A DNA stretch of 64,000 nucleotides, taken from IMG/VR virus record IMGVR_UViG_3300026549_002532, positions 1 to 64,000 of that record. One strand, written 5' to 3'. The position numbers and the translations under genes were made by a program. Below the pieces are notes generated by a model that saw only the letters and a program-made list of their open reading frames with translations, was not told the origin of the DNA and ran no database searches. The DNA comes from a virus (taxonomy: Duplodnaviria > Caudoviricetes). Below, in pieces: positions 8,301 to 63,879 of this stretch; the first letter of the stretch is position 1, and the number at the start of each line of letters is the position of its first letter.

Positions 8301-9473
8301 GGCGAGAACGTCGATGTTGCCGAGTTCGTGCAGCCGTTCGAGCAACATCAGCAAACCCTCGTTGGTGTCTCGTGTCAGTGCCTCCTTGAACTTGGCTGCA
8401 TTGATGCCGGTCGCCTTGATGACCTTGTCCTGCTGCTTGAACATATCCATGACCAACTTACTGACGGCGGTCGCCGACATTTCCACCGCCTGGCCCTGCG
8501 AGTCAAGCACAGCCGCGAAGCCCATGATTTGCGGAATCGTCATCTTGGCTTGCGCTCCCACGCCCGCCATTCGCTGCGCGAAGTTGGCGAGGTATGGAGC
8601 CGACGCGGTGCAGTTCTGCGACAGCTCATTGATGACCGAGCCCACGGCAAGCAACGACTGCTCCACGCCGAGGCGTTGCTTGTCGCCGAATATGTCGGTC
8701 AGTTTGGAGAGGGTAAGCGTCGCTCCCTCGCCCAGGTCGTCAAGAGCCACATTGATTTGGTTCGCCGCCTTGACGAAGCCCAGCACGTCCTGCTCCGACT
8801 GCAAGCCGAGCCGTCCAGCTTCCTGCGCGAGTTTGTTCAAGTCCTCCCGGCTGGTTCGTGTGTCAATCTTCTTGAACTGCTCGTTCAGTTTCTCCACCTC
8901 CTCGGCTGTCATGCCCGTAAACTTGCGGACAGAGGCCATTTCAGCGTCAATGTCCGCATAGACCTGCACAGCGGCTTTGCCGGCCATGACGATGCCGGTC
9001 ACGGCGGCAGCCGCGCCCATGATACTCATCTGCCAGTCGTTGAGCACCCGATTGAAACGCTGCCATTTCGATTCAGAGAGCGTAAGTTCCCCGTTGACTT
9101 TAGCCAGTTCCTCTTTGACCAGTCGGATTTTAGCGGTGTGTGCGTTCCACGCCTCGCTGCCTCGTTCCATGTAGTCCAGCTGCCGGTTGAGTGTTTGGAG
9201 TGTCTTGTTCAGCTCTTTGGGTGTAGCACGGTCGAGGCGCAGCATGACCCGCTCCACCTGCTGTGTGGCGGTCTCGATTTCCCTCATCTGCCTACGGGTG
9301 TCGCCGAGTTCACGGCGCAGTTTCCGCAGCTCCACCTTGTTCCCTGCCATAGCCGCTTTTGCGATGGCATTCTCCAACTCCATTGCACGCTGCTTCAGCA
9401 TTTGCAGGACTTGGAGGGGTTGCTGACCGTTCACGGTCAGGTTGACCGTTGCTTGACTGTTTATGTTGCTCAT
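5313..9473 (-). CDS. Phage tail tape measure protein
   Basis: 1386 aa, Ala/Glu/Lys-rich coiled coil; TP901-type core 'ASVRKFTGMTAEEVEKLNEQFKKIDTRTSREDLNKLAQEAGRLG'. Confidence 0.92.
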   Translation of the reverse strand: MSNINSQATVNLTVNGQQPLQVLQMLKQRAMELENAIAKAAMAGNKVELRKLRRELGDTRRQMREIETATQQVERVMLRLDRATPKELNKTLQTLNRQLDYMERGSEAWNAHTAKIRLVKEELAKVNGELTLSESKWQRFNRVLNDWQMSIMGAAAAVTGIVMAGKAAVQVYADIDAEMASVRKFTGMTAEEVEKLNEQFKKIDTRTSREDLNKLAQEAGRLGLQSEQDVLGFVKAANQINVALDDLGEGATLTLSKLTDIFGDKQRLGVEQSLLAVGSVINELSQNCTASAPYLANFAQRMAGVGAQAKMTIPQIMGFAAVLDSQGQAVEMSATAVSKLVMDMFKQQDKVIKATGINAAKFKEALTRDTNEGLLMLLERLHELGNIDVLAPVFKDMGENGARAAQVISALAGNIDMVKKQQQEASRAFDQATSVTKEYNVQNNTVQAQLDKARKGFNEMAAALGQKLMPVMRYAISGTSALMRVMSVFVDFIIKYKAAIITFAISWTVYKVAVNASTIALRAHYAWLVISQGTMKALSTATLALKVAFFGLTGQIGKAKAAYTAFHLLTKSSPWGLLLSILSAVIAGIAHFVNKTREANQRLREQREEMAKWKQSLTNIDEASAQFSANEITRLKALYKEATNEALSKEKRIEAAKRLQQLYPSVFGNLTTEAILTGQAAKQYRDLTSAIIASARARAAAAKIEENEKELLALEGTLETQREDEQKKTAHAEQVQRQADKKKQQAREKAQGYALGDIRESNTAQREREQVYNRENEKVDQARAAANAATAARKQTESKIAALNKANQTLAEKYEISAKDLENQTVDFTPYTPTGGATGSGSGHGGGRGGRSTATVDKFKAEKEWRERQEALNRIAYATGVIDYQKYTERMNEITAEFYQKQLAHTDLSENERLTISAQYAEEMKKRDELDLKRRIADEKQGYEELKAETQQDYLDGKLSKQAYDMQMENIEFAHLRALVEIQEEGTEERLQAEANYRQRLMQDMERRRKETEDAEKKHQDELKKLKEEYFGNNAAENLEQYNAAMANLDDVYQAEVKAAGDNAAEKLRIDEAYEKAKLALKKKYNQAGSEEDRNALEKWNQDLLDWLNGDGGQALTKSVEALTSGMSSIFSQLSSLVQAEMEIETAAIEKRYEREVSMAEGNKYKTKQLEKQKQKEVAKVKDEANRKLFAMQVIQAVAQTATAALNAYSSAAAIPVVGYVIAPIAAAMAVAAGMMQVAAIKKQQQASQAQGYAEGGFTRPGRVDEVAGVVHAGEWVASQRLLASPVARPLIEALDYAQRTNTIGSLRQTDVSRTITAPAVLAQSQAPTVIVQENKALRETLARLNERLNEPFVTVNTVTGDLGIKQAQDDYQRLMNNKSPKNRRK

Positions 9474-25892: not shown

Positions 25893-26498
25893 TTACTTGC
25901 TCTCTTTCTTGGCGCTCTTGCGTGCGGCTTTCTTCTTGGGTGCGCTCTCGGTGAACTGCTGCGGCTCATCGCAAATTGCTACTCTCTTGCCGGCTCTCAC
26001 AATCTTGGGCAGGTATGTGTCGAGGCTTGCGGCAGGAAAAGCGGCTTGTTGGGCGGTGATGTCCTTTGCGCTTGTACGGGTGAGGGTGATGCCTAAAACT
26101 TCGCTCAATGTCTTTGCATCATCGGCAAAAGAACCATAAAAATCGCCCATGCGGAAAAGCAAAAGTGTGTCGGGGTGCTTGTGCTTCATGGCTTCAAAAG
26201 CCTTTGCCAGTGCGCTCTGCTCGGCGGCTTGCTCGGCTTCGGGTGCTGCGCTCTCCTGCGGTGCGGCTTGCTCGGCTTGTGCCTTGCTTGCCTCAACGTC
26301 AGCCATCAATTTTGTGTAAATAGCTTTGGGCAGGATTGCACCGCTGCGCTTGCGCAATAGGAAACAATAGCGTAACGCCTTGATGGGCTGGGCGAAGAAA
26401 AATTCATCGCTCTTGGTGTTCTCACTGAGGCGGTAAACGTGCCACATTTGGCTACCGCTCTTAACTTCTCGCTTGCTTGCTAAAATCAAATTTGCCAT
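25893..26498 (-). CDS. Stand-alone MutS domain I (mismatch-binding) protein
   Basis: 'HPDTLLLFRMGDFY..F.DDA...L.ITLT...A.FP...LDTYLPKIVRAGKRVAICD' is the MutS N-terminal motif; no ATPase domain. Confidence 0.8.
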   Translation of the reverse strand: MANLILASKREVKSGSQMWHVYRLSENTKSDEFFFAQPIKALRYCFLLRKRSGAILPKAIYTKLMADVEASKAQAEQAAPQESAAPEAEQAAEQSALAKAFEAMKHKHPDTLLLFRMGDFYGSFADDAKTLSEVLGITLTRTSAKDITAQQAAFPAASLDTYLPKIVRAGKRVAICDEPQQFTESAPKKKAARKSAKKESK

Positions 26499-26547
26499 AA
26501 TGGTAGAATTTAGAAATTTATGAATAGTGTTATTAACTCGGTGCTTG

Positions 26548-26826
26548 TTATTGCTCGCAATAGACATTGCAGTAACTAACTTGTGTACCTTGCGACATAG
26601 CCATTTGTGCGGCTTGCTCGCTTGCCTCATCAGCCGTGCTTGCCTCGACTTGGAAAGTGTGTACCTCATTATCGAAGTCAACCACATCAACCGTGAAATT
26701 ATTGAGTGCGGTAGAGCGGTAAGCTTTTTTACAAACTCTGCTCTCGGCTGCGGCAGAAGTGAAAAAGTACGATGTGTTGTAAGGAGCTGTCATAACTGTA
26801 TGAATTTTTAGGAGTGAATAAATCAT
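26548..26826 (-). CDS. Small hypothetical protein
   Basis: First gene below the 26881-27017 hairpin. Confidence 0.6.
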   Translation of the reverse strand: MIYSLLKIHTVMTAPYNTSYFFTSAAAESRVCKKAYRSTALNNFTVDVVDFDNEVHTFQVEASTADEASEQAAQMAMSQGTQVSYCNVYCEQ

Positions 26827-26880
26827 TGATTACGTATATCGCGTATAAGCTTTTTACGGAACTTTATAAAGTGAGGCAGG

Positions 26881-27018
26881 AAAGTGACCGGCAGCAAGGC
26901 TTGCCCAAAAATTTTCTTCCCGTAGGGCTTGCCATTTTTCGGGCGCAACCCTAAAAATTGAAGAGAAATTTTGGAGCAACTTGTATAGCCTTGCAGAGAA
27001 CGGCTGCCCTTAACTTTG
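26881..27018. promoter_or_regulatory. Long imperfect hairpin containing a -7 box (Frpo/ssDNA-promoter-like)
   Basis: AAAGT/ACTTT, GGCAG/CTGCC, GCAAGGCT/AGCCTTGC, CCAAAAATTT/AAATTTTGG and TAGGG/CCCTA nested pairs; TAACTTTG in the right arm. Confidence 0.55.
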
Positions 27019-27273
27019 TGACGGAAAAACTAATACAGGGCGATAGCAGTAATCAATTATTCACCTAAAAATCGTTATGGCGGCTCCCCACATCGTGCCA
27101 CTTCTGTAGCACCCGAGAGCAGATAAAACAAAGCAAGGAGAAGAACGGTGCCAGCCGTTTCCTCTCCTTACCCTGAAAAAATAGAACTGCCACCGGCAGT
27201 TTCTATAAAACAAAAAGGGTGAGCCATTGCTGACCCACCCACGGCTACGAAAGCCAAAGTTAAAATTTAGCGG

Positions 27274-43237: not shown

Positions 43238-45750
43238 TTATTCCATTGATTGAATGTGGGATTCGATAAACTCTTGCTCAAACATATCAAGGCCATACTT
43301 CAAATAGAGCTGGCGGTCGATGTCTGATATTGACCGTGACCAGTCTATATCAGAGTTGTCTGTGAAGTCCTGAATTGGAACATATGCCCATACAGCTGGT
43401 GGGGTATGTTGCGTGATTTTTAAGGTACCCACTAGGCATCTTAAAAATTTAGTTCTTAGATATTTCGCGCAATTAATCGCCTCTTTTTCTGTGTCAAAAG
43501 CACCAATACTAATAAATGTTGATGTGGCAGAATCCCCTGGCTTACCAATTTCAGACTTGCCAATTATTCGTGCTGGCACTGGATTGCCTACAGTTCCAGC
43601 GGCTCCGTCTGCCTCAGAAATAAAGACTTTATGTTTTTCTATATTGTTGTTTTTAGGATAACGAGGAGATAAGTATTTTCTAAAAACATATTTCCAAACA
43701 CGATTAGAGCCAACAAGACCTAAAATGCGATAAAAATCACTTTCATTATCAACAATATCATGAAATACGTATGGCAGGGCTTCAATCGTTGATGTTTTAA
43801 GCTCGTATTCCTCGTTCGGACCTAATTCAGTTACGGCAGGGCGTTTAGATTGAATGTATCTTAAGCGATCCATTGCGCTGTTCGGAAAATCAGTCAAAAA
43901 AATGTCATTAAATTTTAAATCAGATCTTCCTCCAAACACTAATGATTTAAGACTCTCCGAATCTTTGAGATCAAATTTTGAAGCAATTCCTCTTAGAGTA
44001 TCATTTGGGAGAAATTTTTTTATAGGGGAGTATTGAGCATTTGCATTGCGCAAAATGATTACAATACCGCCATTAATACTCACACTTGGGAAACAAACGC
44101 TTGAGTCTTGAGAAAAAAATGCAACTCTAAGATGAGGATCGTTTAACATTTTTTGATTCCATATTGCAGGTGTAAGACCTGCATTAAATAAGAATCTAGC
44201 TGGCGAAATCAGAGTATATAAATCGCACAATGCTTCAGCCAAATTATAGAAATAATGATAAACTGGAGCTTGGCGATTATTTACATTATTAGTTTCTTGA
44301 TATGGTGGGTTGCCCACTACAGCATCAAAATTTATCATAGCTTTACTTGTTGTGCCATTCCAATATCCGAGAGACTTAATTGCTGCTACAAGACCGTCTT
44401 TGTCTGTTTTGGCACGTTCAATTAGTTTATCTGCTTTAATATTTAGTTTTTTGTCAGGTTCACGGAAGCCCATAAGGGTGCGACGTGTGATGCTCGCCGC
44501 CATCGGGGTGTTGCAAATCACGTAGATGTTTTTGCCCACCACGTCGTCCCACGCGGCTTGCTCCTCGCCAACCGAGAGGTTGTCGATGGGGTTGTCAAGC
44601 AAGCCCACCTCCTCGTAATACTTCAACAGGCGGCGGTACATCGTGTAGGTGACATAGAGCGGATAAAGCCCCGTCTTGGAATTAATCTCCAGCACACGCG
44701 AGGCGATGCCTTCGCCCTCGGCAATCTTGTGGAACACGTTCTCGGTCACGTCGCCGTGGTCCACAAAGCGAGGCTCGGTGGTGTCGATAAACTCGACCAC
44801 GTTGCCGTCCTCGTCGAGCACGGCTCGCTGGTTGTCGCCGTCGAACTTCTCGTTGAAGAAACAGTAGCCGCCCAATGTGTCGCTCATGTGCATATTCACC
44901 ACGCGCCACGGGGTGAGCACCGTCTCCTTGTCGGGATTGTGGAAGGTAGAGAATATCCAGGCGATGCGCTTGATGCGGTCGTCGATGTGCATCGAGTCGG
45001 CCTCACGGGCAAGGGCACGGATGCGCTTGCCGGCAGCGGTGAACACCGCCGGATTGTAGCACTTCTTGAACTGGTTGAACTTTTGCTTGGTCACGCCACG
45101 GGGCATGAACTCTTCCCATGAGGCGGGATCGACCAGCGATGTGAAGTTGTCGATGGTGATGCCGGTGTCCTCGTCGTCGAGCTTGGCACCGTAGATGAGC
45201 AGCGGTATGCGCAGCGAGATGCCGCGCAAGATGGTGATGCGCTTGTCGCGCTCGTCGCGTTTTTTCTTCTTCTCGGCACGCTCACGCTCCAGCTCGGCAC
45301 GTTCCTCGGGCGTAAGATCTGCTTCAGCTTCCTTGCCTTTCTTGCGAGCCTCACGCATCTTCTGGCGGATTTCGGCACGCTTTTCTTCCAATTTCTTGCG
45401 TTGCTCAGGGGTGAGGTTGTCAATATCCAGGGCCGAAGCCTTTTTGGGCTTTTCCATGTTGGTAGTCTTGGCAATCTCAGCTCCCAGCTCATTCAGCTCT
45501 TTCAACTCGTCGCCGGCGATGTCGAGCAATGCGTCCACATCGTAGAGGCTGGTGTCGTTGAAGCCGTTGCGCACCACGCGGTCAACATAGACCTGCTGCA
45601 AGCGACCGAACAGTTCTTCGGCATCATAATCCACCATCTTGCCACCTTTCAGCGAGATGACGTTGCAATATTGCAGGAACTCATCCATGTTGAGGATGTC
45701 CTGCTGCCTGTCGGTGGTGGTGGCGCTGCGCTTCTCCTTTTGGGTGAGAG
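43238..45750 (-). CDS. Eco57I-type N6-adenine methyltransferase/TRD half of a frameshifted helicase-MTase fusion
   Basis: 'VLEINSKTGLYP' (motif I) and 'FDAVVGNPPYQ' (motif IV); joins the helicase ORF via a frameshift near 45750. Confidence 0.8.
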
Positions 45751-47204
45751 GCGAATTTTGCGGTCTCGGCGATGGCATTGAGGGTGCGCTCAGGCGCGAA
45801 GTCGAAGACGTAGCACTCGGTCTTCATCTTGCCCTCGCTGTTGATGTAGGGCGACTGCACACGGAAGATGGTCTGCATATAAGTGGCCGCCGAAGTGGTG
45901 TCGCTGCCTTTCATGTAGAAGACGGCAGTCCACGGTTTCACGGTCACGCCGGTAGTCAGGCGACCGCAGGAGATGGTGATGGTGCTGGTGGCTTCGGGGC
46001 GGTCGCCGATGGCACTAAGCACCGCGTCGAGGGCGTTGGAGCGTGTCTCGTCGTCATCACCGTCACCAGCCACATTCTTGATGGTGAAACGCTTGAAAAT
46101 GCGGTGCTTTTCGAGCAACGCTTTCATGGCCTTGGCCTCTTTAACGCCCGGCACGACCCACAGGGTGTGACGGAAGCTACGACGGAAGGCATCAGTTGAA
46201 TAAGGATAGTTGTTGCTATCGTCTTTTGTGCAAAGCAAGTCAAGGAACGAAAGTACATCGTCCTCATGTACGAAACGGCCTACATGTTCGGGCGAAGGAA
46301 GATCTGCGAGGTCTGCTTTCTTGTTGCCCGTCCACACACGGAAAAACTCACTAAACTTGAACGTCTGACCCTCCTCAACATAGCCGCTGACGAGCTTACC
46401 GAGGTCATAGGTGTATATGTTCATACGCGGCAGTTCAGCGTAGGGGTTGGGTTCGCCCGGGTACTTCTTGTCCCACTCGCGTTTGGCTCGCTGTTCCTTG
46501 GTGTAGTCCCAAGTGTAGATTTCGCTGTCCTCGAAGTCCTCGTAGAGGTTGAACGGCGTGCCCGAGAGGTGGAGCAACTTGGTGCGCTCTTTGGTGAGCC
46601 ATTGGTCAATCACTCGCTTGCCAAGCGCGGTGCGCGTGCCCTCGTGCGCCTCGTCCACCACAACCAGGTCCCAGTTGGTTTTGAGGATGTCCTGTTTCAA
46701 CTGCTCATCGTTGTCGCCGCCAACGAGCGTGGAACGGCGCAGGTACTGCATCGACACGAAGAACACCAGGCGGCATTTGCCGTCGGTCACACGGCGATTG
46801 AGGCTGTAGAAGTCGCCGCTCGACTCATCATCGGTGCGTGTGGCATAGCGATAGTCGGTGCCATCGAAGATTTTCTTGAAATCCTCGTGCCAGCCCTTAT
46901 CCACCACGGGGCGGTGGGTGACGATGAGCGTGCGCTTCACGCCCATGCGCCGTGCCAGTTCAAGGGCGCACAGTGTCTTGCCGAAGCGCATCTTGGCGTT
47001 CCACAAGAACTGGCGGAACTTGTCGAGCGGAGTGTAGGTGCGGTCTTCACTTCGGCCTGTGCTGGTGCAGAACTGCCTCAACGCTTTAGTGATGGCCTCA
47101 ACCTGCTCGGGTCGAAACTCGATGGCTTCAACGGTCTCGTCGCCAAACAAGCTGTCGCTCTTGGGTTTGCCTTGATATTGTCCAAACGTTTGATATGTTT
47201 CCAT
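45681..47204 (-). CDS. ResIII-type SF2 helicase, N-terminal half of the fusion
   Basis: 'NAKMRFGKT', 'VVDEAH', 'LSGTP', 'QTIFRVQ'; ends in nonsense-like residues after the frameshift. Confidence 0.8.
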   Translation of the reverse strand: METYQTFGQYQGKPKSDSLFGDETVEAIEFRPEQVEAITKALRQFCTSTGRSEDRTYTPLDKFRQFLWNAKMRFGKTLCALELARRMGVKRTLIVTHRPVVDKGWHEDFKKIFDGTDYRYATRTDDESSGDFYSLNRRVTDGKCRLVFFVSMQYLRRSTLVGGDNDEQLKQDILKTNWDLVVVDEAHEGTRTALGKRVIDQWLTKERTKLLHLSGTPFNLYEDFEDSEIYTWDYTKEQRAKREWDKKYPGEPNPYAELPRMNIYTYDLGKLVSGYVEEGQTFKFSEFFRVWTGNKKADLADLPSPEHVGRFVHEDDVLSFLDLLCTKDDSNNYPYSTDAFRRSFRHTLWVVPGVKEAKAMKALLEKHRIFKRFTIKNVAGDGDDDETRSNALDAVLSAIGDRPEATSTITISCGRLTTGVTVKPWTAVFYMKGSDTTSAATYMQTIFRVQSPYINSEGKMKTECYVFDFAPERTLNAIAETAKFASHPKGEAQRHHHRQAAGHPQHG

Positions 47205-51333: not shown

Positions 51334-51376
51334 ATTTGAAGCAGTTTTTTGAGGGGAATAATCCATTTAACTGCCG

Positions 51377-51411
51377 CAAAGGAAAAACCTAACTGTGCGC
51401 TCTATCTGCAC
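51377..51411 (-). promoter_or_regulatory. Promoter with palindromic operator C
   Basis: GTGCGCTCTATCTGCAC 51395-51411, 10 nt from CAAAGGAA 51377-51384. Confidence 0.7.
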
Positions 51412-51481
51412 AGCAAAAACTTTTTTTCAAGAAAAGCACAAAAAAAACACTCAAAGAGCGATTTCTGTGCAGCCAATATAT

Positions 51482-51682
51482 AAAAAAGCGCAAACTGCGC
51501 ATTATACAAATTGAAGGTCTTAGGACAAACCTAGCAGTCGATAATGATAGCAGTTCACGCCTATGCGGCGAGAACCACTATACTTCCGTGACTGCTTAAA
51601 ATTGAAAGTGTCCTAAGTTCTCAATTTGTCAGGAGTATAATGTTCCCTTGTTTCCTCGATGTCTGTCAAACTTGACGTTTGA
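51482..51682 (-). ncRNA. Candidate structured small RNA
   Basis: -7 box TAATTTTG (51688-51695), nested stems CTTAGGAC/GTCCTAAG and AGCAGTC/GACTGCT, terminator GCGCA-AAC-TGCGC followed by T6. Confidence 0.4.
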
Positions 51683-51734
51683 CGCTGCAAAATTAGGAAA
51701 ATTTTTCTAATTGGCAGGTGATTACGAGGAAATT

Positions 51735-52475
51735 TCAACTGTTGAGCGGATAGTTGCACGTAAGCAACAGTTTCGCTCTGGGTGCTTTGCCCGACTTGTT
51801 AAACACGCTCGGGTAGAGAACCAGCTCGTCATCGTTGGGGCGTTGCTCCCAAAGAATGTCGCAGCCTTTGTTCCAGAGGAAAGACTTCGACTGCTGGCCG
51901 CAAATGACGGTGAACCGCTCAAAGTCTCTGAGAAGTCCGTCATTTTCGAGCGCACAACCAGCGAGCGTGCCGGTAAGCTCGAAGGTGATGTTGCCTCCTC
52001 GCGATGCGAAGCGATAGAACTTTTCATTCACTGGAATGACAAGTTCTTCGTCGTGGCGGAAAGCATAGGGCAGTTTGGCATGAAACACATGACTGGGGAT
52101 GTCATCCGCGTCATACGGACTGCGAAGCTCCTTGCCCAGTGGTGTGTCAAACTCATGAGCTTTGGTCAGCAAGACTGAAGGCTCATGGACGGCAGCCCAC
52201 TGGCTCTCGGTGCCATCGGCTTTGGCCAGCACATCGACGAAGCCGACACACTTGCCGGTAGGCAGGTCGGCGGTCGGCGGCAGGTTGCCGAACAGTTGAT
52301 GGTTGTTGACTGCCTGGAACCATTCCAAAGGAACGTCAGACATCAAGAAACATGGGAGCGCATAGATGTAAAGGCGGCATCCCTTTGAGAAATGGTCGCC
52401 GAAGATCGCATTTCTCAAGCCTCGTACAAGCATTGTAGCGAAAGGCTGCTGAATGAAAAGATTTCTTGTTTCCAT
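51735..52475 (-). CDS. Divergent ASCH-like paralog
   Basis: 'NLFIQQPFATMLVRG', 'PLEWFQAVNNHQLFGNLP' parallel the 50554 protein. Confidence 0.65.
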   Translation of the reverse strand: METRNLFIQQPFATMLVRGLRNAIFGDHFSKGCRLYIYALPCFLMSDVPLEWFQAVNNHQLFGNLPPTADLPTGKCVGFVDVLAKADGTESQWAAVHEPSVLLTKAHEFDTPLGKELRSPYDADDIPSHVFHAKLPYAFRHDEELVIPVNEKFYRFASRGGNITFELTGTLAGCALENDGLLRDFERFTVICGQQSKSFLWNKGCDILWEQRPNDDELVLYPSVFNKSGKAPRAKLLLTCNYPLNS

Positions 52476-52664: not shown

Positions 52665-54302
52665 CTACAGTACGCCACTACTGCTGATGCTGAAAGCATT
52701 GCGGTAAGGGAACTTCTCGCAGCCGATGTAGAGGGTGTCGAAAGCGTCGGTGCCATCGGTGCGGTGTTCGAGCAGGTTCTCCTCGTTTTCCGCGAGTTTT
52801 TCGCCGCCTTTGTCCTTTCGGAAGCCGTTGCGCCCACGAACTACTCCTGCCGTTTGAATGGCAAGGATCAGGTCGTCGTTGTTTTGGCGGTTGAACATCG
52901 GCATGAGCCGTTGTTTACCGGCAAAACCCTGGTTGATGAGCAGGTACTTCTCATCGTGGCGCATGGGATTTCCGAGGTTGATGTCCTCCACCTGCCAGCC
53001 GTGCCGCTCGAACTCGTGGCACACCACCCAGTGGAAGTCCTGCTCGTTGACGGCATAGTTGCCGCCGAGCGCGGTACTGTCGTAGTAATAGACCACGACC
53101 TTGCATTGGTGGTGGGCGTAGTAGCGGCAAAAGTCGTCAATGAGCGCAGGTATCTTGCGCTCGAACTTCGTGTAGAACGACTTGATGACGTTGAGCCGTC
53201 GGCCTGTTGGCTGCCCGGCCACAATCCAATTGATGTTGGCATTGTAGTCCATGCCGATGCAAATGGGCGCAAACGGGTTCAAGTCCTTGTCGGCTCGGCA
53301 GTCGAGTTGGGCCTCGTTGAAGTCGTAGCCCAGACTGTCAAGGTATTCAAAATCGCTGGCGTTGTACTTGTGGCCCTCACGCATCGACGAATAGAAGCCG
53401 TCTTTGGCGATGCCTATTCGTTGACAAAGTATTGACGTTTGGAAAGTCTTTGGCGTGAGGTCGCGCTTCATCTGTTTGATGTAACTTTCGCCCAGTAGTT
53501 GTAGATTTTCAATGCTGCTGTATTCTTTGTAATACACCGCCACGGAGCGCATTTTGTTCAAGTCCTTATCGAGCCGTCGCAGATAAGTTCTAAGGTGCTT
53601 CGGCACGGTCGCGCCCTGCGCATTATAAGCACGGATGCGCTCTTTGACTTTCCAAATCTCATAGATAGTGGCCTTTATCGTCTCGATTAAGTCCACGTCC
53701 ATCTTATCTTGATAGTGGAGAAACCACGAGCCTTTTTGCGTCTGCGGCATATCGCTCAAAATCATGACAGAATGATTAAACGAGTGATGCCCGAAGTAAG
53801 ACTTGATGCCGCCGTTCGCCGGTAGCGTCTCATCTTTAAGCCGTTCATAATCTATGAACTTGGCCTCGTCAATGAGCAGCCATGAGAGCGTGAGCGAGTT
53901 GGAGCTGCCCGGTCGGTCTTGCGAAATGATAATGGCGCAAGAGCCGTTGTAGAACGTGATGACGTGCTCATATTCGGCAGGCTCGATGATGGGCTTGCCG
54001 AAAGACTTGGGCGGTCGCCGTCCAATCACATAGTGAACACCTCTGATATAGCCCCATCGTTTCCACGCGGCGAGCAAGCCCGGGATGGTGTTCGTCAGTC
54101 CGTGCTTGTAGGTCGGCACCACGATGCCGCCTGTTGAGCCGGCCATGCGTTGCATATTACGCAACACAAAAGGCGAGGCGATAGAGTCGGTCTTGCCTGT
54201 GCGTCGCCCTGCGACAATGACCGTTGTATTGGCACCAATCAACTGCGTCAGTCGCTGCGGCGTATTAAAGTATATTTGTTTCTTGGGATTTTCCATCTTC
54301 AA
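52665..54302 (-). CDS. Terminase large subunit
   Basis: Walker A 'AGRRTGKT', Walker B 'LIDEAK', nuclease acidic motifs 'GMDYNA' and 'DGTDAFD'. Confidence 0.88.
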   Translation of the reverse strand: MKMENPKKQIYFNTPQRLTQLIGANTTVIVAGRRTGKTDSIASPFVLRNMQRMAGSTGGIVVPTYKHGLTNTIPGLLAAWKRWGYIRGVHYVIGRRPPKSFGKPIIEPAEYEHVITFYNGSCAIIISQDRPGSSNSLTLSWLLIDEAKFIDYERLKDETLPANGGIKSYFGHHSFNHSVMILSDMPQTQKGSWFLHYQDKMDVDLIETIKATIYEIWKVKERIRAYNAQGATVPKHLRTYLRRLDKDLNKMRSVAVYYKEYSSIENLQLLGESYIKQMKRDLTPKTFQTSILCQRIGIAKDGFYSSMREGHKYNASDFEYLDSLGYDFNEAQLDCRADKDLNPFAPICIGMDYNANINWIVAGQPTGRRLNVIKSFYTKFERKIPALIDDFCRYYAHHQCKVVVYYYDSTALGGNYAVNEQDFHWVVCHEFERHGWQVEDINLGNPMRHDEKYLLINQGFAGKQRLMPMFNRQNNDDLILAIQTAGVVRGRNGFRKDKGGEKLAENEENLLEHRTDGTDAFDTLYIGCEKFPYRNAFSISSSGVL

Positions 54303-55185: not shown

Positions 55186-55700
55186 AACGTCAATTTTTGA
55201 GCTAACAGGTCGTTCAGGGGAACGGAATGATTGCGGATTAAATCTTCAATTTGGGTGTGCAAAGTGATGAACAATTCGGGGTCGGTCGTGACCACAGCAC
55301 TCTCGCTTCTGTTACCTCGTGTTAGATTTTGAGATGTGATGATGCTCACCACTTCGCCACGCTCGCTGCGTACCAGCAGCACCTTGCTGTGGTTGTCTGC
55401 AAGGTAGGTGGTGGTGATAACCTGCGTGATGAACGCCCACAGTTTGAGCGTCTTGTTGGTGGCCTTGTGGTCGAGCACGAGGTTGAACCGAGTGACGAGG
55501 CCGGACTTCTCGATGAAGAACAATCGGCGAATGAACTCCTCGCTGATTGAGAATGAGGTCTGCCACACCTCGGACTTGCCGAGTTGTTGCAGCACCCAGT
55601 CGAGCACGTCCGCCACCTGCAAGGCGTTAGAGAGATAAGCCTGATAGGGCTTTTCTCGCAGTGGCTTCAAAAAATCTTCTATTGAGGCACTACGTTTCAT
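55182..55700 (-). CDS. Phospholipase D-family (single HKD) nuclease-like protein
   Basis: 'NHSKVLLV...SIITSQNLT' = HxK...S.N PLD motif. Confidence 0.7.
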   Translation of the reverse strand: MKRSASIEDFLKPLREKPYQAYLSNALQVADVLDWVLQQLGKSEVWQTSFSISEEFIRRLFFIEKSGLVTRFNLVLDHKATNKTLKLWAFITQVITTTYLADNHSKVLLVRSERGEVVSIITSQNLTRGNRSESAVVTTDPELFITLHTQIEDLIRNHSVPLNDLLAQKLTL

Positions 55701-55846
55701 CTATTTGAAGTAATTTTGCAGCGTTAATGAGAGGTCTAACGAGTGGGGCGACCACGCCTATTCGTATTCGTCTGTTTTTACAGAGGCTTCTCACATCGGC
55801 GGCAGGTGAGTCCTGGCCGTTTTTTCATGTACTATAGATGCCTGTA

Positions 55847-56563
55847 TTACAATATTTCCAACTCTTTGAGGTCCGCGGTGAGCTTGTCGGTGGGATTGAT
55901 AACCTTGCTGTAAAGCGCGAGGATCTGGGCTTTCAGTTCCTCGCTGGGCTTTTTGGCGTAGCGTCCTTTGGCAAGGTTAATCATGCGCACCGCCTTACGG
56001 CTTTCCTCACGGGCTTCATTCTCCATGACCGCTGCGCCGTCTGTGCCGGTGTAGTGGTCGTAGGTCTCCCAGTTCGAGTGGAGCTTCTTGTCGAGGTCGA
56101 TAAGTTCTTTAAGGAACGGATAACGGTCACAGTCGCGAGCCGGATTATCCTCTGTCGATAGCGAGCGCAACTTCAAGTGCAGTTCGCGCATCCGTTGCAC
56201 AATGCCCAGGTTCTCGACATAGAGAGCCTGAATCTCATCGGGCAGCAGGTCGTGGTCATCACGCTTGCCCTGTTTGAAACTCTCGCCGGTGTTGGGGGTC
56301 AAAACTTTTTTGGCAATCACGTTTACCTGTGATTGCATCTCCTCAACCTGCGCGTGCGTGAGCTTCTGCAAGCGGAACGAAAGTCGTTTCTGCAACTGGC
56401 GTTCAATGAACTCGGCGTTACGCCGCGGGTTCGCCATCAGATTGCGGTACTGGATTTGATTGCCCGTGAGTTGTAGCAAGTAGAGTGCTCCTTTGGCGTA
56501 GTCGCGCTGCTCATGGGGCAAGTACAGCCAATCTTGAATTTCTTTCGTAAACTCTTGGTTCAT
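55847..56563 (-). CDS. Hypothetical phage protein
   Basis: 238 aa helical, operonic. Confidence 0.65.
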   Translation of the reverse strand: MNQEFTKEIQDWLYLPHEQRDYAKGALYLLQLTGNQIQYRNLMANPRRNAEFIERQLQKRLSFRLQKLTHAQVEEMQSQVNVIAKKVLTPNTGESFKQGKRDDHDLLPDEIQALYVENLGIVQRMRELHLKLRSLSTEDNPARDCDRYPFLKELIDLDKKLHSNWETYDHYTGTDGAAVMENEAREESRKAVRMINLAKGRYAKKPSEELKAQILALYSKVINPTDKLTADLKELEIL

Positions 56564-59063: not shown

Positions 59064-60149
59064 TTAGGGAACTTGGTTGAACAGCTTCTTGGCGTTGTTC
59101 ACCTTGTCGGCGAACACGTCAAAGGGAGACTTGGCGGTCTGTTGCGGAGCATCGACCACCACTTGTGACTTTTCGGCAGGGTTGGCTTTCAATGCCTGAA
59201 CCTGCTCGGCGAGTTCGGTGTTGCGCTTGTCGCGGTCAGCGATGGCACGCTCAACGGCGAGCGCTTGCTCTGCGGTGAGCTTCACACCGTCCTCGCCCAC
59301 AGCGAAGCCCTCGATGTTGAGGACTTCGCCAAGGAGCGAAAGGGACTGGAGCATGGTTGCGGATGGTTTGAGTGTTGGGGAAGATGGATGATTATTTTCG
59401 TTATGACTAGCTTTTTCTTTCATTTCAGCTTGGGGATTTCCGGCGGATATTTGTTCGTGTTCGGCCTCCTTGGCGGACTTGAACAGCGAGGCAATGGCAG
59501 CGATGAAACGCTCGATGAGCGTCTCATTGCGGCTGTAGGCTGTGGGTATGTTCGGAATGGGCATACCGGCAGCCGCCATCGCCGAAGCCACCGCGTCGGT
59601 GAGCACCGGCTTGGTCTCGCCCAGGTCGGTGATCTCATCGACAAAGCCCCAGGCCTTCGCCTCTTTAGCGGTGAGCCAGCCGCCTACTCGCATGAGGTCG
59701 AGCAGGTCGGCCTCGGGCTTGCTGCACTTGGCCGAATACATCGCGGCAACATTGTTGTCGAGTTTGTTGAGGTCTCGGATTGCCGCCTCGCAGTTGTCGC
59801 GGACAGTTGCGAGCTGGTCGGCATTCAGGCTTCCCCACTCGAAAAACTCCGCGCTGCACTTGTGCACGAGGTACATGGCCGATGCGTCGATGCTGATGTG
59901 CCTGGCACCGAGCGAAGCGATGGTCGCGGCACTGGCATTCATGCCCACGAAGTGGACGGTGACATCGCCATGACGTTTGAACGCCGAGGCGATGGAGATG
60001 GCGGTCGCCAGCGAACCGCCGAGGCTGTCGATAAGCACGTGGACCGGCTTGCCCTCGTTCTTGGCAAGCACATAGTCCACATAGTCGCGGTCGAAGTCGT
60101 AGCCTCCGACGTAGCCTTTGAGGTGGAGATTGTATTTAGTCTGTGGCAT
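59064..60149 (-). CDS. Clp-type head maturation protease with scaffold tail
   Basis: 'IDSLGGS', 'NASAATIASLG', 'YLVHK', 'WLTAKEAKAWGFVDEI'; coiled-coil C-terminus. Confidence 0.88.
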   Translation of the reverse strand: MPQTKYNLHLKGYVGGYDFDRDYVDYVLAKNEGKPVHVLIDSLGGSLATAISIASAFKRHGDVTVHFVGMNASAATIASLGARHISIDASAMYLVHKCSAEFFEWGSLNADQLATVRDNCEAAIRDLNKLDNNVAAMYSAKCSKPEADLLDLMRVGGWLTAKEAKAWGFVDEITDLGETKPVLTDAVASAMAAAGMPIPNIPTAYSRNETLIERFIAAIASLFKSAKEAEHEQISAGNPQAEMKEKASHNENNHPSSPTLKPSATMLQSLSLLGEVLNIEGFAVGEDGVKLTAEQALAVERAIADRDKRNTELAEQVQALKANPAEKSQVVVDAPQQTAKSPFDVFADKVNNAKKLFNQVP

Positions 60150-60169
60150 AATCGTACTGATTTTTGCCA

Positions 60170-60204
60170 CAAAATTATAAAGGTGCAAGTGCCGCATAAA
60201 AGAC
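60170..60204 (-). promoter_or_regulatory. Phage module promoter copy 6
   Basis: CAAAATTA 60170-60177, 20 nt, AAAAGAC 60198-60204. Confidence 0.7.
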
Positions 60205-60266
60205 AGGAAAATATACCCTCTGTTTCAGATATTATTTTTACCTTTGCAGTCTAATAGATGCAAAAT

Positions 60267-61673
60267 ATGGCTGAAAATCAGAACATAGAGTACAAAGAAT
60301 CGTGGCGCGACGAATATCTGAAATGGATATGCGGCTTCGCCAATGCGCAAGGTGGCAGGATATACATCGGTATTGCCGACGATCAGAAAGTCGTGGGTGT
60401 CAGCAATTCCCACCGCTTGCTGGAAGATATACCCAACAAGATTGTAACAACGCTCGGCATCGTGTGTGATGTCAACCTGCTGGAGCGCGAAGGCAAAGAC
60501 GTTATCGAGATAGTCGTTGAACCGAGCAATATGCCCATCGCATATAAAGGCGAGTATCACATACGCAGCGGTGCGACCAAGCAGCAGTTGCGTGGCGTAG
60601 CCCTGCAGCAGTTCATCCTGAAGAAAATGGGCTTGTCGTGGGATGAGATTCCTACCGAGGTTGGGATTGACAAAATCGACCGTATAGCCATAGAATATTT
60701 CTTGCGCAAAGGTATCTTCCACAAACGCCTCAGTCCTGAAGCCATCAATTATACGACCGAAGAAGTATTGCAGAACCTGCAACTAATCAACGATGAGGGA
60801 AAACTTAAAAATGCCGCATTGTTGCTGTTCGGCAAAGACCCACAACGCCATTTTGTCTCGGCTATATTCCGCATAGGTCGTTTTGGCGGAGAAAACAATG
60901 ATTTGCTATCCCAAGACACTATTGAAGGGAATATTCTTCAGATGGGTGACAAAGTGGTCGAAATCCTAAAGAACAAGTATCTCATTTCTCCAATTCATTA
61001 TGAGGGAATGGTAAGGGTCGAGACGCTTGAAATTCCCGAAGATGCCCTACGAGAGATATTGTATAATGCTATTTGCCACAAGGAGTACACAGGCGCACAT
61101 ATCCAAATGCGCGTTTATAATGACCGCATCACTATATGGAATCAAGGTGGATTGCCATTCGGTGTTACCATTGACTCTCTTATGGAACAACACTCCTCTC
61201 ACCCTCGCAACAAAAATATTGCCAACACATTCTTCAAAGCCGGTTTCATTGAGGCTTGGGGTCGTGGTATCGGGAAAGTTAACGATGAATTCAAGAAAGC
61301 TAACCTACCTCTGCCGAAGTATGAGGAGCGAGAAGGTGGTTTTATGGTGACAATACAACGTCCTGAAAATGTGCGCAATATGTTTTCAGGCCCCTCAAGC
61401 ACTCCCCAAGTACCCCCCGAGTACCCCCCAAGTACCCCCCAAGTTGACAATCTTGTTTCACGAATGGGAACGGAATACTTATCAATAACTGAATTGTTAA
61501 ACTTGATGGGACTTCGTGACCGCAAATATTTCAGAGCAAATTTCTTAACGCCAGCCATTGAAAAAGGATTTGTCGAGCTGGAAATTCCTGGGCAGATACG
61601 AAATCCGAAACAACGTTACAGATTAACAGGATTAGGTCTGGGCTATCATGGATTTATGAAAGGAGCAAAATAA
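60267..61673 (+). CDS. AlbA_2 (Schlafen-like) + HATPase + HTH protein, moron
   Basis: 'ENQNIEYKESW...ICGFANAQGGRIYIG', 'ALREILYNAICHKEY', 'PRNKNIANTF...IEAWGRGI'; own -7 box near 60239. Confidence 0.85.
   Translation: MAENQNIEYKESWRDEYLKWICGFANAQGGRIYIGIADDQKVVGVSNSHRLLEDIPNKIVTTLGIVCDVNLLEREGKDVIEIVVEPSNMPIAYKGEYHIRSGATKQQLRGVALQQFILKKMGLSWDEIPTEVGIDKIDRIAIEYFLRKGIFHKRLSPEAINYTTEEVLQNLQLINDEGKLKNAALLLFGKDPQRHFVSAIFRIGRFGGENNDLLSQDTIEGNILQMGDKVVEILKNKYLISPIHYEGMVRVETLEIPEDALREILYNAICHKEYTGAHIQMRVYNDRITIWNQGGLPFGVTIDSLMEQHSSHPRNKNIANTFFKAGFIEAWGRGIGKVNDEFKKANLPLPKYEEREGGFMVTIQRPENVRNMFSGPSSTPQVPPEYPPSTPQVDNLVSRMGTEYLSITELLNLMGLRDRKYFRANFLTPAIEKGFVELEIPGQIRNPKQRYRLTGLGLGYHGFMKGAK
61409..61444 (+). 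repeat. 11-bp tandem repeat AGTACCCCCCR x3 inside the CDS
   Basis: Units start at 61409, 61420 and 61431. Confidence 0.7.
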
Positions 61674-61803
61674 TGACCGAATAAAAGCCGTGTGGGTCGT
61701 TATGACCTCACGGCTTAATTTTTGTGGGTTGTCGGATGCTCACGTTTCGTTGCAAAAAAAGGCGAGGCTTTTACACCTCACCCCGAAGCGAAAGCCTCAG
61801 TGG

Positions 61804-62466
61804 CTAATCGCGGAAGACATAGCCATTCCAGAAAGTGAAGCCATCCAAGAAAATATCTCTTGCGAAAGCCTTGATGTCAAAGTAATTACGCAGGTACGAG
61901 GGCATCTCAGCGTAATAGCCGCAATCCTCGGCAAGCTGCTCGGCGTAATCTTCTTCGCTGTCGAACTTTCCGCAATAGGCCTCACGGAACTCATAAAAGA
62001 GATTGTCGCCGTCAGTGTAACTGCCGTACTTGCAATCAAGGAAAGCCTCGAAAGCCTCCTGCTCATCCTCATCAAGCCCGGCGAACTCGCGTACATTGTC
62101 GAAATCCTGTTCTGTGAAAGAGCCCTCGCGGTAGAACTGACCCGGGAATCCCATGTAATCTTGGAACATGTACTCCGGATCCTGCTCAAAGCGGTGAATC
62201 CAGCGGCAGACCATCATGAACTCCTCGTAATCGGCGCAAGCCTCGATGGAGACCCATGCTCCGCGCAGCGACCCCGAGGCGTATGCCCCGTATGACCCCA
62301 CGTAGATAGCCGCTACTTCCTCATCGGGGTGAGCGATGAACTGCTCCAAATCCACTTCCTCAACCCCGTAGGGATTGTTGATGTTCTCGACAGCCTTTAC
62401 AGGCTCTTGTGCCTGGGTGCTTTGAGCACCGCTCGCAACTTCTGAAAATTTGTGATTTTTCTCCAT
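61804..62466 (-). CDS. ardA: Antirestriction protein ArdA
   Basis: 'AIYVGSYGAYASGSLRGAWVSI', 'EYMFQDY', 'FDSEEDYAE', 'YFDIKAFARD'; very acidic DNA-mimic composition. Confidence 0.85.
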   Translation of the reverse strand: MEKNHKFSEVASGAQSTQAQEPVKAVENINNPYGVEEVDLEQFIAHPDEEVAAIYVGSYGAYASGSLRGAWVSIEACADYEEFMMVCRWIHRFEQDPEYMFQDYMGFPGQFYREGSFTEQDFDNVREFAGLDEDEQEAFEAFLDCKYGSYTDGDNLFYEFREAYCGKFDSEEDYAEQLAEDCGYYAEMPSYLRNYFDIKAFARDIFLDGFTFWNGYVFRD

Positions 62467-62537
62467 GACAGTGAAAAATTTATTGTGAAACAATCGAGTG
62501 AACTTGTAATCGCTCTTATTTGAGCTTTTACACTGCC

Positions 62538-62696
62538 TGCAAAGTGCGACGGCGAACACTTAGCAAGGATTGACCGAAAAAAATTACCCCTCGCGGGCCC
62601 GAAAAATTTTAGCCGGCACGGTCTCAAATTTTTTCATTTTTTTCGACCGTCAACATCGCCTGTCCTTGCGTGTTAAGACGGTGCATTAACTTTGCA
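62538..62696. promoter_or_regulatory. Long imperfect hairpin with -33/-7 boxes (Frpo/ssDNA-promoter-like)
   Basis: TGCAAAGT/ACTTTGCA and GCAAGGA/TCCTTGC pairs, A-tract/T-tract core; TTG-N19-TAACTTTG in the right arm. Confidence 0.6.
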
Positions 62697-62699
62697 GCG

Positions 62700-63430
62700 T
62701 AAAAGCCAAAAAGAGCCGATGCCCACAAGGAGCGAGTGTGCAGCGATAGATTTTGTCATGGAGAGCGCAGCAATCACATCAAGAAGTGAGCGATTGCGTC
62801 CAACAAAGCACCGGCCATGAGGCGTAAAGCCGAGAACACAATCCCGAAGGAGAACAATGAAGGTGTGGATTGGGGCAGTCGCCCACCCGAGGAAGTGCCG
62901 CTGCGTGGGGGCGTTCGCTGCACGCACCCAGTGCGCCACGGAGCACTCCATTGAGCGCAGTCGCCGATTAGTTCAGAAAGTCTGCCGTTCACCGCATTGA
63001 GCAGAGGAGTACACCAAGATACAAGGGCAACCGAGTCAGTAAGCGAGGGTTCAAGGAGCAGGATTCAATGCACGCCGCCGAGCCGATTAGAACCAAGATG
63101 GGCAGGAAGCCGAGGCTTTTCCGCAATACGGCAGACTGACAGCGACAATCAATGAGAGCCGTGATATTGCGTAAAGTAGGCGAAGAATAGCCGAGCGGTG
63201 ATGATTGTGTGCGTCCATTACGCTTTGCCCGACACCATTCCATAGTTACACAACGACATCAAGGCAATCAGCAAGAGACTTGGACGGCTCCACGGAATGG
63301 CTGCTCCGCCACCAGTCACGTGCCACATCGGGTGAGGATGAATCACTTATTGCCCACCGATGATGATAAAAAGGCGACGGCAAGCGTTTCCCAACGACTG
63401 CCGCCTAAAGTAAAAAGGTATTTCTTTGTA
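62700..63430 (+). other. Long ORF-less structured tract (candidate ncRNA)
   Basis: Starts just below TAACTTTG; 10-bp long-range pair 62979-62988/63128-63137; GAGCCGA at 62713 and 63080. Confidence 0.4.
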
Positions 63431-63450
63431 TGAAAAAAATCTACATAGTT

Positions 63451-63879
63451 CTATCTGGTGATGCTGCATGGGATTAACGCTTTCTGCGCGTAGAGCGTGA
63501 TTTCGACCGTCCAGACCGCAGGATCGCCGTTAGGCGTTCCTGTGTCGCGCGTGACTTTCACGATAGGTCGGGGCTTCTCACGCTGCCCGATGATGTACGA
63601 CTGGCCATTGCAGTCGGTGACGATGTAGGCGACGTGCCGCTGCAGCGGCAAGGCATCGAGGGTCTTGAAGCGCAGAGTGACCTGCTCAATCCTGCCGTTG
63701 TTGTTATAGATGGATTCCGCCTCGCAGGTGGGCACGCCGCAGAACGCGATAGGTGTAATGTCGGTGAACACGCCCACAGGAATACCGGCGAGGTGCTTAT
63801 ACATTATCTCACGCTGCAAATTCACCGAAGGCACATGCCCGATGAATTTGATGCCCGGAAGTGATTGAGTCTGTCTCAT
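63451..63879 (-). CDS. Phage hypothetical protein
   Basis: 142 aa, co-oriented with the structural genes. Confidence 0.6.
   Translation of the reverse strand: MRQTQSLPGIKFIGHVPSVNLQREIMYKHLAGIPVGVFTDITPIAFCGVPTCEAESIYNNNGRIEQVTLRFKTLDALPLQRHVAYIVTDCNGQSYIIGQREKPRPIVKVTRDTGTPNGDPAVWTVEITLYAQKALIPCSITR

Follow-up and report, generated by a model that had tools for sequence, protein, structure and literature searches.

The window analyzed here is the whole stretch of 64,000 nucleotides that forms the first 64 kb of a 76.7-kb IMG/VR provirus record (IMGVR_UViG_3300026549_002532), which belongs to a tailed phage (Caudoviricetes) of gut Bacteroidales. A long imperfect hairpin lies directly upstream of its anti-restriction gene ardA. 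On balance we consider it probable that this hairpin is a single-strand promoter of the Frpo/ssi kind, suited to the primary sigma factor of Bacteroidota. Its sequence carries a consensus host promoter that faces away from ardA in duplex DNA and that would face into ardA when the template strand folds.

Structure of the hairpin upstream of ardA

The hairpin occupies positions 62509-62720 (212 nt, + strand), and its minimum free energy (MFE) DNA fold has 84 pairs and -54 kcal/mol. The folding strand is the template strand of ardA. When positions 62440-62730 were compared with dinucleotide shuffles, the z score was -7.06 for the + strand and -6.48 for the - strand, and 0 of 200 shuffles were equally stable. 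The first-pass annotation had described a hairpin of about 160 nt within 62466-62700 and had proposed folding prediction as a check. The hairpin itself is confirmed by that check, but its size and bounds had to be revised; position 62466 is the start codon of ardA. The apical part (~62575-62655) is branched and A/T-rich, and it differs among relatives.

The distal (right) arm carries two promoter boxes. The -33 region CCTTGC is at 62664-62669 (+), with TTG at 62666-62668, and pairs with GCAAGG at 62563-62568. The -7 box TAACTTTG is at 62687-62694 (+) and is followed by C, which fits TAnnTTTGY. Both boxes are where the annotation had placed a perfect TTG-N19 promoter, except that the spacer from TTG to TAACTTTG is 18 nt. 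CTTTG of the -7 box (62690-62694) pairs with CAAAG (62540-62544), and T62686, T62687, A62688 and A62689 form a bulge that includes the "TA" of the box. The predicted stem of the window copy rebuilds TTG-N18-TAACTTTGC, i.e. both boxes of the primary promoter of the host. These boxes agree with the published sigma-ABfr consensus of -33 TTTG and -7 TAnnTTTG(Y) (PMC7366714, PMC8748976). The strict pattern TTG-N17-20-TAnnTTTG occurs just 9 times in the whole 76.7-kb record when both strands are counted.

The proximal arm holds a degenerate mirror promoter that faces ardA, CCTTGCT-N-GCACTTTG, at 62540-62569 (-), with GCACTTTG at + coordinates 62540-62547. It has GC in place of "TA", and non-TA bases are found there in all relatives. 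In the folded + strand, the right arm would serve as non-template and the left arm as template, and a polymerase placed there would read leftwards into ardA. The annotation had claimed both the degenerate ardA-facing box and this orientation; the first was found as described, and the geometry can be read from the sequence and the pair list.

Conservation and covariation among relatives

The hairpin was found in 10 of 10 distinct sequences retrieved through ArdA, from 98% down to 42% protein identity. Most relatives with enough context share the order repressor, HTH_17, replication genes, non-coding gap, ardA, ClpP protease and capsid. The hairpin was absent from L023, whose ArdA is 33% identical and lies in another context. 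Among close relatives, the nucleotide identity of the hairpin exceeds that of ardA. Among distant relatives the sequence of the hairpin is very different but the architecture is the same.

Alignment A2 contains 10 sequences, one for each distinct ArdA relative. RNAalifold predicted 38 pairs on A2, and 12 of the 38 have changes on both sides. Paired cells amounted to 93.2%, compared with 85.4% in shuffles, and 0 of 500 shuffles matched the observed value. For doubly changed pairs and for the covariation score, too, 0 of 500 shuffles came up to the observed values. When the pairing partners were slid by 1-3 columns, pairing fell to 36-51%. No sequence of alignments A2 and A3 deviates from CTTGC in the -33 region, and the proximal box reads [GTA]C[AT]CTTT[GA] in all 10 sequences of A2. 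The two arms differ by a conserved 4-nt indel and by the conserved TA/GC difference. The pattern of change indicates that the hairpin structure is maintained by selection.

Orientation of the consensus promoter at viral ardA loci

Because a motif scan could detect only the "outward" form, loci for the orientation test were retrieved by protein profile alone. In 80 viral ardA loci, TTG-N17-20-TAnnTTTG was sought on both strands within 450 nt upstream. Twenty-eight loci had the consensus promoter antisense to ardA and a single one had it in sense; by our estimate, chance alone would yield about 0.7 occurrences on each strand in a set of 80 loci. The 28 antisense loci represent 24 distinct sequences in about nine promoter-sequence classes. 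The z scores of these 24 range from -3 to -14 except for two weaker ones (one of them -0.5). TTG is fully paired in 22 of the 24, and in 23 the fold leaves the A of TA without a partner. Spacers in the relatives are 17-19 nt. The 28:1 bias indicates that ardA of this Bacteroidota phage type has no consensus duplex promoter of its own but an opposite-strand one inside a hairpin.

The wider hairpin family

A motif scan of metagenome contigs found at least 120 loci. Together with the other loci, these were grouped by their 39-nt promoter segment into at least 43 classes, and one representative with sufficient flanks was folded for each of 37 classes. In 33-34 of these 37 representatives the proximal arm provides the pairing partner of CTTGC in the -33 region, and CTTTG of the -7 box is paired in 27-30. 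Within the -7 box, the T is left unpaired in 32 representatives, the A in 32 and the base that follows in 28. A predicted bulge at the -7 TA is a conserved feature of the family. Spacer position 15 is a CG pair in 20 representatives and GC in 8, and spacer position 14 is TA in 12, GC in 5, AT in 2 and CG in 2. The occurrence of several Watson-Crick types at these positions shows that the promoter stem has been kept by compensatory change.

The template strand folds more stably than the sense strand in 32 of 37 classes and in 23 of 24 viral ardA hairpins. The mean template-sense difference is -5.3 kcal/mol, and 46 of 55 sequences surpass their own shuffled control (Wilcoxon p = 6e-8, with sequences that are not independent of each other). 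The difference is large in the class found before ssb (-32 vs -16 kcal/mol).

The exact 39-nt pattern was present in 1 of 401 sampled Bacteroidales genomes (G001), in two copies, both before ardA. The element may be rare in species-representative genomes, or too diverged there for the exact pattern. G001 is a Prevotellaceae metagenome-assembled genome with two different ardA genes, on contigs L150 (C45) and L151 (C58), each with its own hairpin of a different class. By blastn, positions 62467-63450 had no match in the phage collection and the hairpin had no match among plasmids. Rfam at the gathering threshold gave no match in the window; for 62400-63450 the single match was terminator-like, with an E value of 0.77.

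A physical genome end at the hairpin was considered and rejected, as contigs end at many positions on both sides of it and inside it. Contigs L019, L020, L025, L053, L073, L074, L084, L088 and others stop in the hairpin or within tens of bases of it. Most likely these are assembly breaks at an inverted repeat beside a variable insert, and assembly-based surveys would therefore under-count the element.

Genes downstream of the hairpins

Among the matches listed, an ArdA gene identified by profile lies downstream of the hairpin, in the direction in which the folded promoter would read, at 59 metagenome loci. A further class of 11 loci among these matches encodes a diverged ArdA, confirmed on two members, and at about 47 human-gut loci among them the hairpin is followed by a 125-amino-acid (aa) SSB (PF00436 2e-14, TIGR00621). 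The third cargo is a protein of about 70-80 aa followed by a protein with MutS domain I. Frpo/ssi promoters classically drive genes such as ardA and ssb (PMC9849209, PMC6294495, PMC12672017).

The window holds a second hairpin of the same family at about 26825-27056 (+), with TTG at 26991-26993, a 17-nt spacer, TAACTTTG at 27011-27018 and a z score of -4.2. Its sequence resembles the L014/L036 class. The cassette at this hairpin, 25893-26793 (-), consists of a gene for about 81 aa (26548-26793) and a MutS_I gene (PF01624 2.4e-22) that spans 25893-26498 by its conserved start or extends to 26690 as the longest open reading frame (ORF). The same pair is found behind the same hairpin type in L108 and L065. 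The small gene and the stand-alone MutS_I gene may be an anti-defence or anti-mismatch-repair cassette. L108 carries tandem cassettes on its - strand (~9357 and ~11377), in which hairpin, small gene and MutS_I are followed by hairpin and ardA. The small gene and MutS_I stand in this order also in L014 (6211-8765), upstream of the hairpin and ardA of that contig. The tandem resembles, in miniature, the anti-defence islands in the leading regions of plasmids. Two other units of the window that combine an antisense promoter with a stem, at 55690-55850 and 51360-51740, have another architecture, and the first folds weakly. They do not belong to the hairpin family.

The hairpin before ssb belongs to a near-clonal small integrative element of human-gut metagenomes (L097:9192-9830, L048, L052, L117). 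On one side it carries, in order, the hairpin, SSB, an optional Metallophos gene, and genes for a 128-aa protein, ParA, a 114-aa protein and a 168-aa protein. On the other side are defence-like cargo (AAA_21/RloB), a multi-HTH_17 protein and a tyrosine integrase. No type IV secretion system, relaxase or transfer genes were found within about 10 kb on either side, and megablast of the ssb locus against plasmids gave no match. In the two Bacteroides plasmids examined, hairpins of about 330 nt precede ssb. One of the two is pBUN2, which additionally carries the conjugation genes for a TraM-recognition-domain protein and PcfJ/PcfK. The basal helix of the plasmid hairpins, TTTTAC.GTGC / TTTGCA.CGGAAAA, is the same as in the family, their distal arm contains a TAnnTTTG, and their template strand is the more stable one. 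These related hairpins on conjugative plasmids support an ancestry shared with conjugative elements, as had been suggested for the window hairpin.

The ardA cassette and its prophage surroundings

The ardA gene of the window, at 61804-62466 (-), encodes a full-length anti-restriction protein of 220 aa (Pfam PF07275 5e-31, PHROG 2059 4e-26). An intrinsic terminator lies directly 3' of it at 61759-61784 (-), which makes hairpin, ardA and terminator a self-contained cassette.

In double-stranded DNA (dsDNA), the consensus promoter faces an ORF-less tract at 62721-63370, a clade-specific insert of about 650 nt. The tract is G+C-rich, 83-93% identical in L003, L004 and L006, and reduced to a 50-nt trace in L009. 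It is missing from L015 and L021, in which the hairpin directly adjoins the upstream gene with its terminator, and it has no match in Rfam or the phage database. By these comparisons the tract lies outside the conserved unit and is not a conserved partner of the promoter. The boxes do face it, as the annotation had noted in proposing rightward firing from dsDNA. A terminator-like hairpin with a T-run at 63376-63416 (-), with a weak terminator-like Rfam match, ends an early-region gene at 63451-63879; a homologue of this terminator is present in L015. The gene, located upstream of the promoter hairpin, encodes 142 aa and has no family match.

To the right of the hairpin lie the 142-aa gene and genes for a DnaC-like loader, a DnaD/O-like initiator, an HTH_17 protein and a divergent CI-like repressor. 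Other parts of the prophage are a tRNA (645-719), an integrase (758-2293), the tape-measure gene (5313-9473), the large terminase (52665-54302) and a capsid gene beside a ClpP-type head protease (59064-60197). A second tyrosine integrase, truncated to 341 aa and with no catalytic-domain match, lies beyond the CI-like repressor (L002:7338-8363, record positions 67338-68363). It may mark the right end of the prophage or be a remnant of an older insertion.

A gene at 60258-61673 (+), on the strand opposite to ardA and located between it and the head protease, joins Schlafen/AlbA_2 and HATPase_c_4 to a Fic-like C-terminal domain. This moron-like insert is missing from relatives such as L006 and L021. 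L017 has a differently built AlbA_2 protein within a type I restriction-modification operon that adjoins ardA. Inside the prophage, 43238-47204 encodes a protein with an Eco57I-type methylase domain (846 aa) and a ResIII/SNF2-like helicase (507 aa). The prophage thus holds defence and anti-defence genes together.

Proposed mechanism

We propose the following course of events. When the + strand, the template of ardA, is unpaired, 62509-62720 would fold. The distal arm would then supply the non-template -33 TTG, the 18-nt spacer and the -7 box TAACTTTG, and the proximal arm would supply the template. The "TA" of the -7 box would be kept unpaired, i.e. pre-melted. RNA polymerase would initiate near 62531, move leftwards, transcribe a leader of about 65 nt and then ardA, and stop at the terminator at 61759-61784. 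In the duplex state the boxes would be directed away from ardA, with a predicted outward start near 62699, and the degenerate box alone, with a predicted start at about 62535, would face the gene. Hairpin, gene and terminator would form a portable cassette used by temperate Bacteroidales siphophages (for ardA and for the small gene with MutS_I) and by small integrative elements (for ssb).

The anatomy, the conservation, the covariation, the orientation bias and the gene associations are observed in the sequences. Use of the folded form by the polymerase is what we infer from this anatomy and from comparison with known promoters. The strand-specific logic that the annotation had likened to Frpo gains from several of these observations: conservation, covariation, the 28:1 antisense bias, the unpaired TA and the use of the hairpin before ssb and MutS_I. 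In the phage, the strand would most plausibly be exposed in replication intermediates, or at or after DNA entry. Skew at four-fold degenerate sites, taken as a sign of strand exposure, was ambiguous and does not enter into this reading: on the coding strand C exceeds G, but T also exceeds A. Rather more speculative, and in our judgment somewhat short of an even chance, is the idea that a family of temperate Bacteroidales tailed phages routinely expresses anti-defence cassettes from promoters that exist only in folded single-stranded DNA (ssDNA).

Several points weigh against a single-strand promoter. The gene content (capsid, protease, terminase and tape measure) is that of a tailed dsDNA prophage. 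Profile searches of the 76.7-kb record, which included the relaxase search that had been suggested, found no relaxase (PF03432), coupling protein (PF02534) or SSB (PF00436), although an oriT is still possible. Since these three are missing, no single-stranded stage is known for this phage. Strand asymmetry in folding is absent from the window's own copy, with -58.8 vs -59.3 kcal/mol for the two strands. In the family, shuffled sequences lean in the same direction as the real ones, by -2.1 kcal/mol on average, and part of the asymmetry is therefore compositional. Bacteroides promoters usually have spacers of 19-21 nt, and the 17-19 nt found here are slightly shorter. Finally, the consensus promoter should fire outwards in dsDNA, and this could be its real job.

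Alternative explanations

The hairpin might instead be extruded as a cruciform from negatively supercoiled duplex, with no true single-stranded phase, and the hairpin of the + strand would be the ardA promoter, in the manner of the hairpin promoters of coliphage N4. Outward firing from the duplex would leave negative supercoiling behind it and so favor extrusion. We judge a cruciform unlikely, but it stays a serious competitor because it keeps the same promoter logic. A dsDNA phage without conjugation genes would suit it, as would the apical region, which is A/T-rich in all families, and the near-equal folding of the two strands in the window. However, the many mismatches and bulges of the stem would make extrusion costly, and the family-wide advantage of the template strand goes beyond the compositional control, as if one strand alone must fold. 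Members of the family also precede ssb in an integrative element, and Bacteroides plasmids such as the conjugative pBUN2 carry related hairpins before ssb; there, ssDNA transfer would be the simpler account.

Ordinary duplex elements would also account for part of the data, and we rate them as slightly less likely again. The consensus promoter might produce an outward non-coding RNA, or an antisense or insulating transcript against read-through from the early operon; the palindrome would be a protein-binding site or incidental, and ardA would be expressed from the weak proximal box or by read-through. The consensus boxes do point outwards in dsDNA, here towards the 650-nt ORF-less tract, and a degenerate promoter does face ardA. 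On the other hand, in L015 and L021, which lack the tract, the promoter points at the terminator of a converging gene at a distance of about 130 nt. Because the tract is present in close relatives only, an outward non-coding RNA promoter is unlikely to be the conserved function, and neither a conserved divergent gene nor an Rfam family was found. Duplex elements would also leave unexplained the compensatory pairing over about 70 bp per arm, the conserved unpaired TA, the single sense consensus in 80 loci and the association with ardA, ssb and MutS_I.

With a lower chance still, the hairpin might be a priming site of the ssi/sso type, at which RNA polymerase makes a primer for complementary-strand synthesis on the folded strand, with transcription being secondary. 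Work cited in PMC12672017 and in PMC11541004 describes Frpo as serving both transcription and primer synthesis. The replication module, with its DnaD/O-like and DnaC-like genes, is immediately upstream of the ardA hairpin, and ssb is among the cargo genes. Yet the hairpins are always aimed into a specific cassette with its own terminator, an orientation that priming does not need, and two copies lie at unrelated sites in one phage. Priming overlaps with a single-strand promoter and is compatible with it, and it is a serious competitor for the same reason as the cruciform.

An invertible promoter in its OFF orientation is improbable. In such an inverton the basal inverted repeats would recombine and reorient the consensus promoter to face ardA; a flip between CTGCAAAG and CTTTGCAG would give TTG-N18-TAACTTTG facing the gene, and promoter invertons with flanking inverted repeats are abundant in Bacteroidales (PMC8748976). 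But a single orientation was found in 10 of 10 ArdA-retrieved loci and in 28 of 29 motif-bearing viral loci. Flipping would scramble the conserved 4-nt arm indel and the TA/GC difference, near-perfect terminal repeats would be expected, and neither interior pairing nor covariation would be needed. No invertase is adjacent, unlike in the cases of PMC8748976; the integrases are at 758-2293 and 67338-68363.

A palindromic mobile element resembling a miniature inverted-repeat transposable element, whose outward promoter landed here by chance, would be a portable unit of about 200 nt ahead of different genes, but it is very improbable given the fixed orientation to the downstream gene, the compensatory changes that show selection on pairing, and an exact 39-nt pattern that occurs in 1 of 401 Bacteroidales genomes with both copies before ardA. 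An RNA structure was also set aside as unlikely: no predicted transcription start includes the whole hairpin, no T-run follows it and Rfam gave no match.

Significance and comparison with known systems

Experimentally demonstrated single-strand promoters come from enterobacterial conjugative plasmids only, where they trigger a burst of anti-defence expression while the incoming strand is still uncopied. In full-text literature searches, ssDNA promoters were described only for enterobacterial plasmids and their relatives, and none for Bacteroidota or phages. If our reading is true, the principle would extend to a phylum whose sigma factor and promoter grammar are different, and to tailed dsDNA phages, for which no single-stranded entry stage is known. 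The template strand of such phages would be unpaired at a decisive moment, whether entry, early replication or supercoil-driven extrusion. Extrusion would flip a consensus outward promoter into an inward hairpin promoter, and a stage or switch of this kind is unrecognized in tailed-phage biology. One small cassette would make the timing of single-strandedness or extrusion of a phage genome testable. The reading would also supply a search rule for early anti-defence genes in mobile elements of gut Bacteroidales: an antisense TAnnTTTG in a long hairpin with its TA bulged. Cargo within reach of this rule would include the 81-aa protein and the MutS-domain-I protein.

Promoter-like boxes in folded ssDNA are known from other systems. 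The single-strand origins ssoA and ssoU of rolling-circle plasmids and the minus-strand origin of filamentous phages offer them to host RNA polymerase. Unlike these origins, which yield short primers and are not positioned for gene expression, the hairpin described here is always aimed at a coding cassette. Early promoters of coliphage N4, a dsDNA tailed phage, serve its virion RNA polymerase as extruded hairpins with stems of 5-7 bp. N4 thus combines short stems with a phage-encoded polymerase, whereas the present hairpin has 212 nt and a host sigma consensus. Like the invertible promoters of Bacteroidales (PMC8748976), the hairpin places a TAnnTTTG promoter between inverted repeats, facing away from the gene in one state. 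It differs from them in its one orientation in 38 loci, its self-complementary interior with covariation, its asymmetric arms and the lack of an adjacent invertase.

The comparison with Frpo1 and Frpo2 of plasmid F and with the ssi1-3 or class 1-3 promoters of ColIb-P9 and pESBL relies on PMC9849209, PMC12672017 and PMC11541004, and on Masai & Arai 1997 as cited in them. As in these systems, a long imperfect non-coding hairpin lies directly upstream of establishment or anti-defence genes (ardA, ssb), the template strand folds, two host promoter boxes are rebuilt in the stem, the duplex is not aimed at the gene, and the cassettes are portable and repeated. The features held in common are position and strand, rebuilt boxes, a structure under selection, and cargo (ardA, ssb, MutS_I). 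Residence in the leading region of an element transferred as ssDNA was not found in the 76.7-kb record; the hosts of Frpo/ssi are conjugative plasmids, and here the host is a tailed dsDNA prophage without oriT-associated genes. The boxes are -33 TTG and -7 TAnnTTTG instead of TTGACA and TATAAT. Sigma-70 boxes are absent apart from chance-level matches, and the two groups are set apart here by their boxes. Frpo is reported to be inactive as duplex, whereas the duplex here would be a perfect outward consensus promoter, as judged from its sequence alone. Taken together, the evidence supports a Bacteroidota version of the Frpo/ssi single-strand promoters, and the phage setting is its surprising part.

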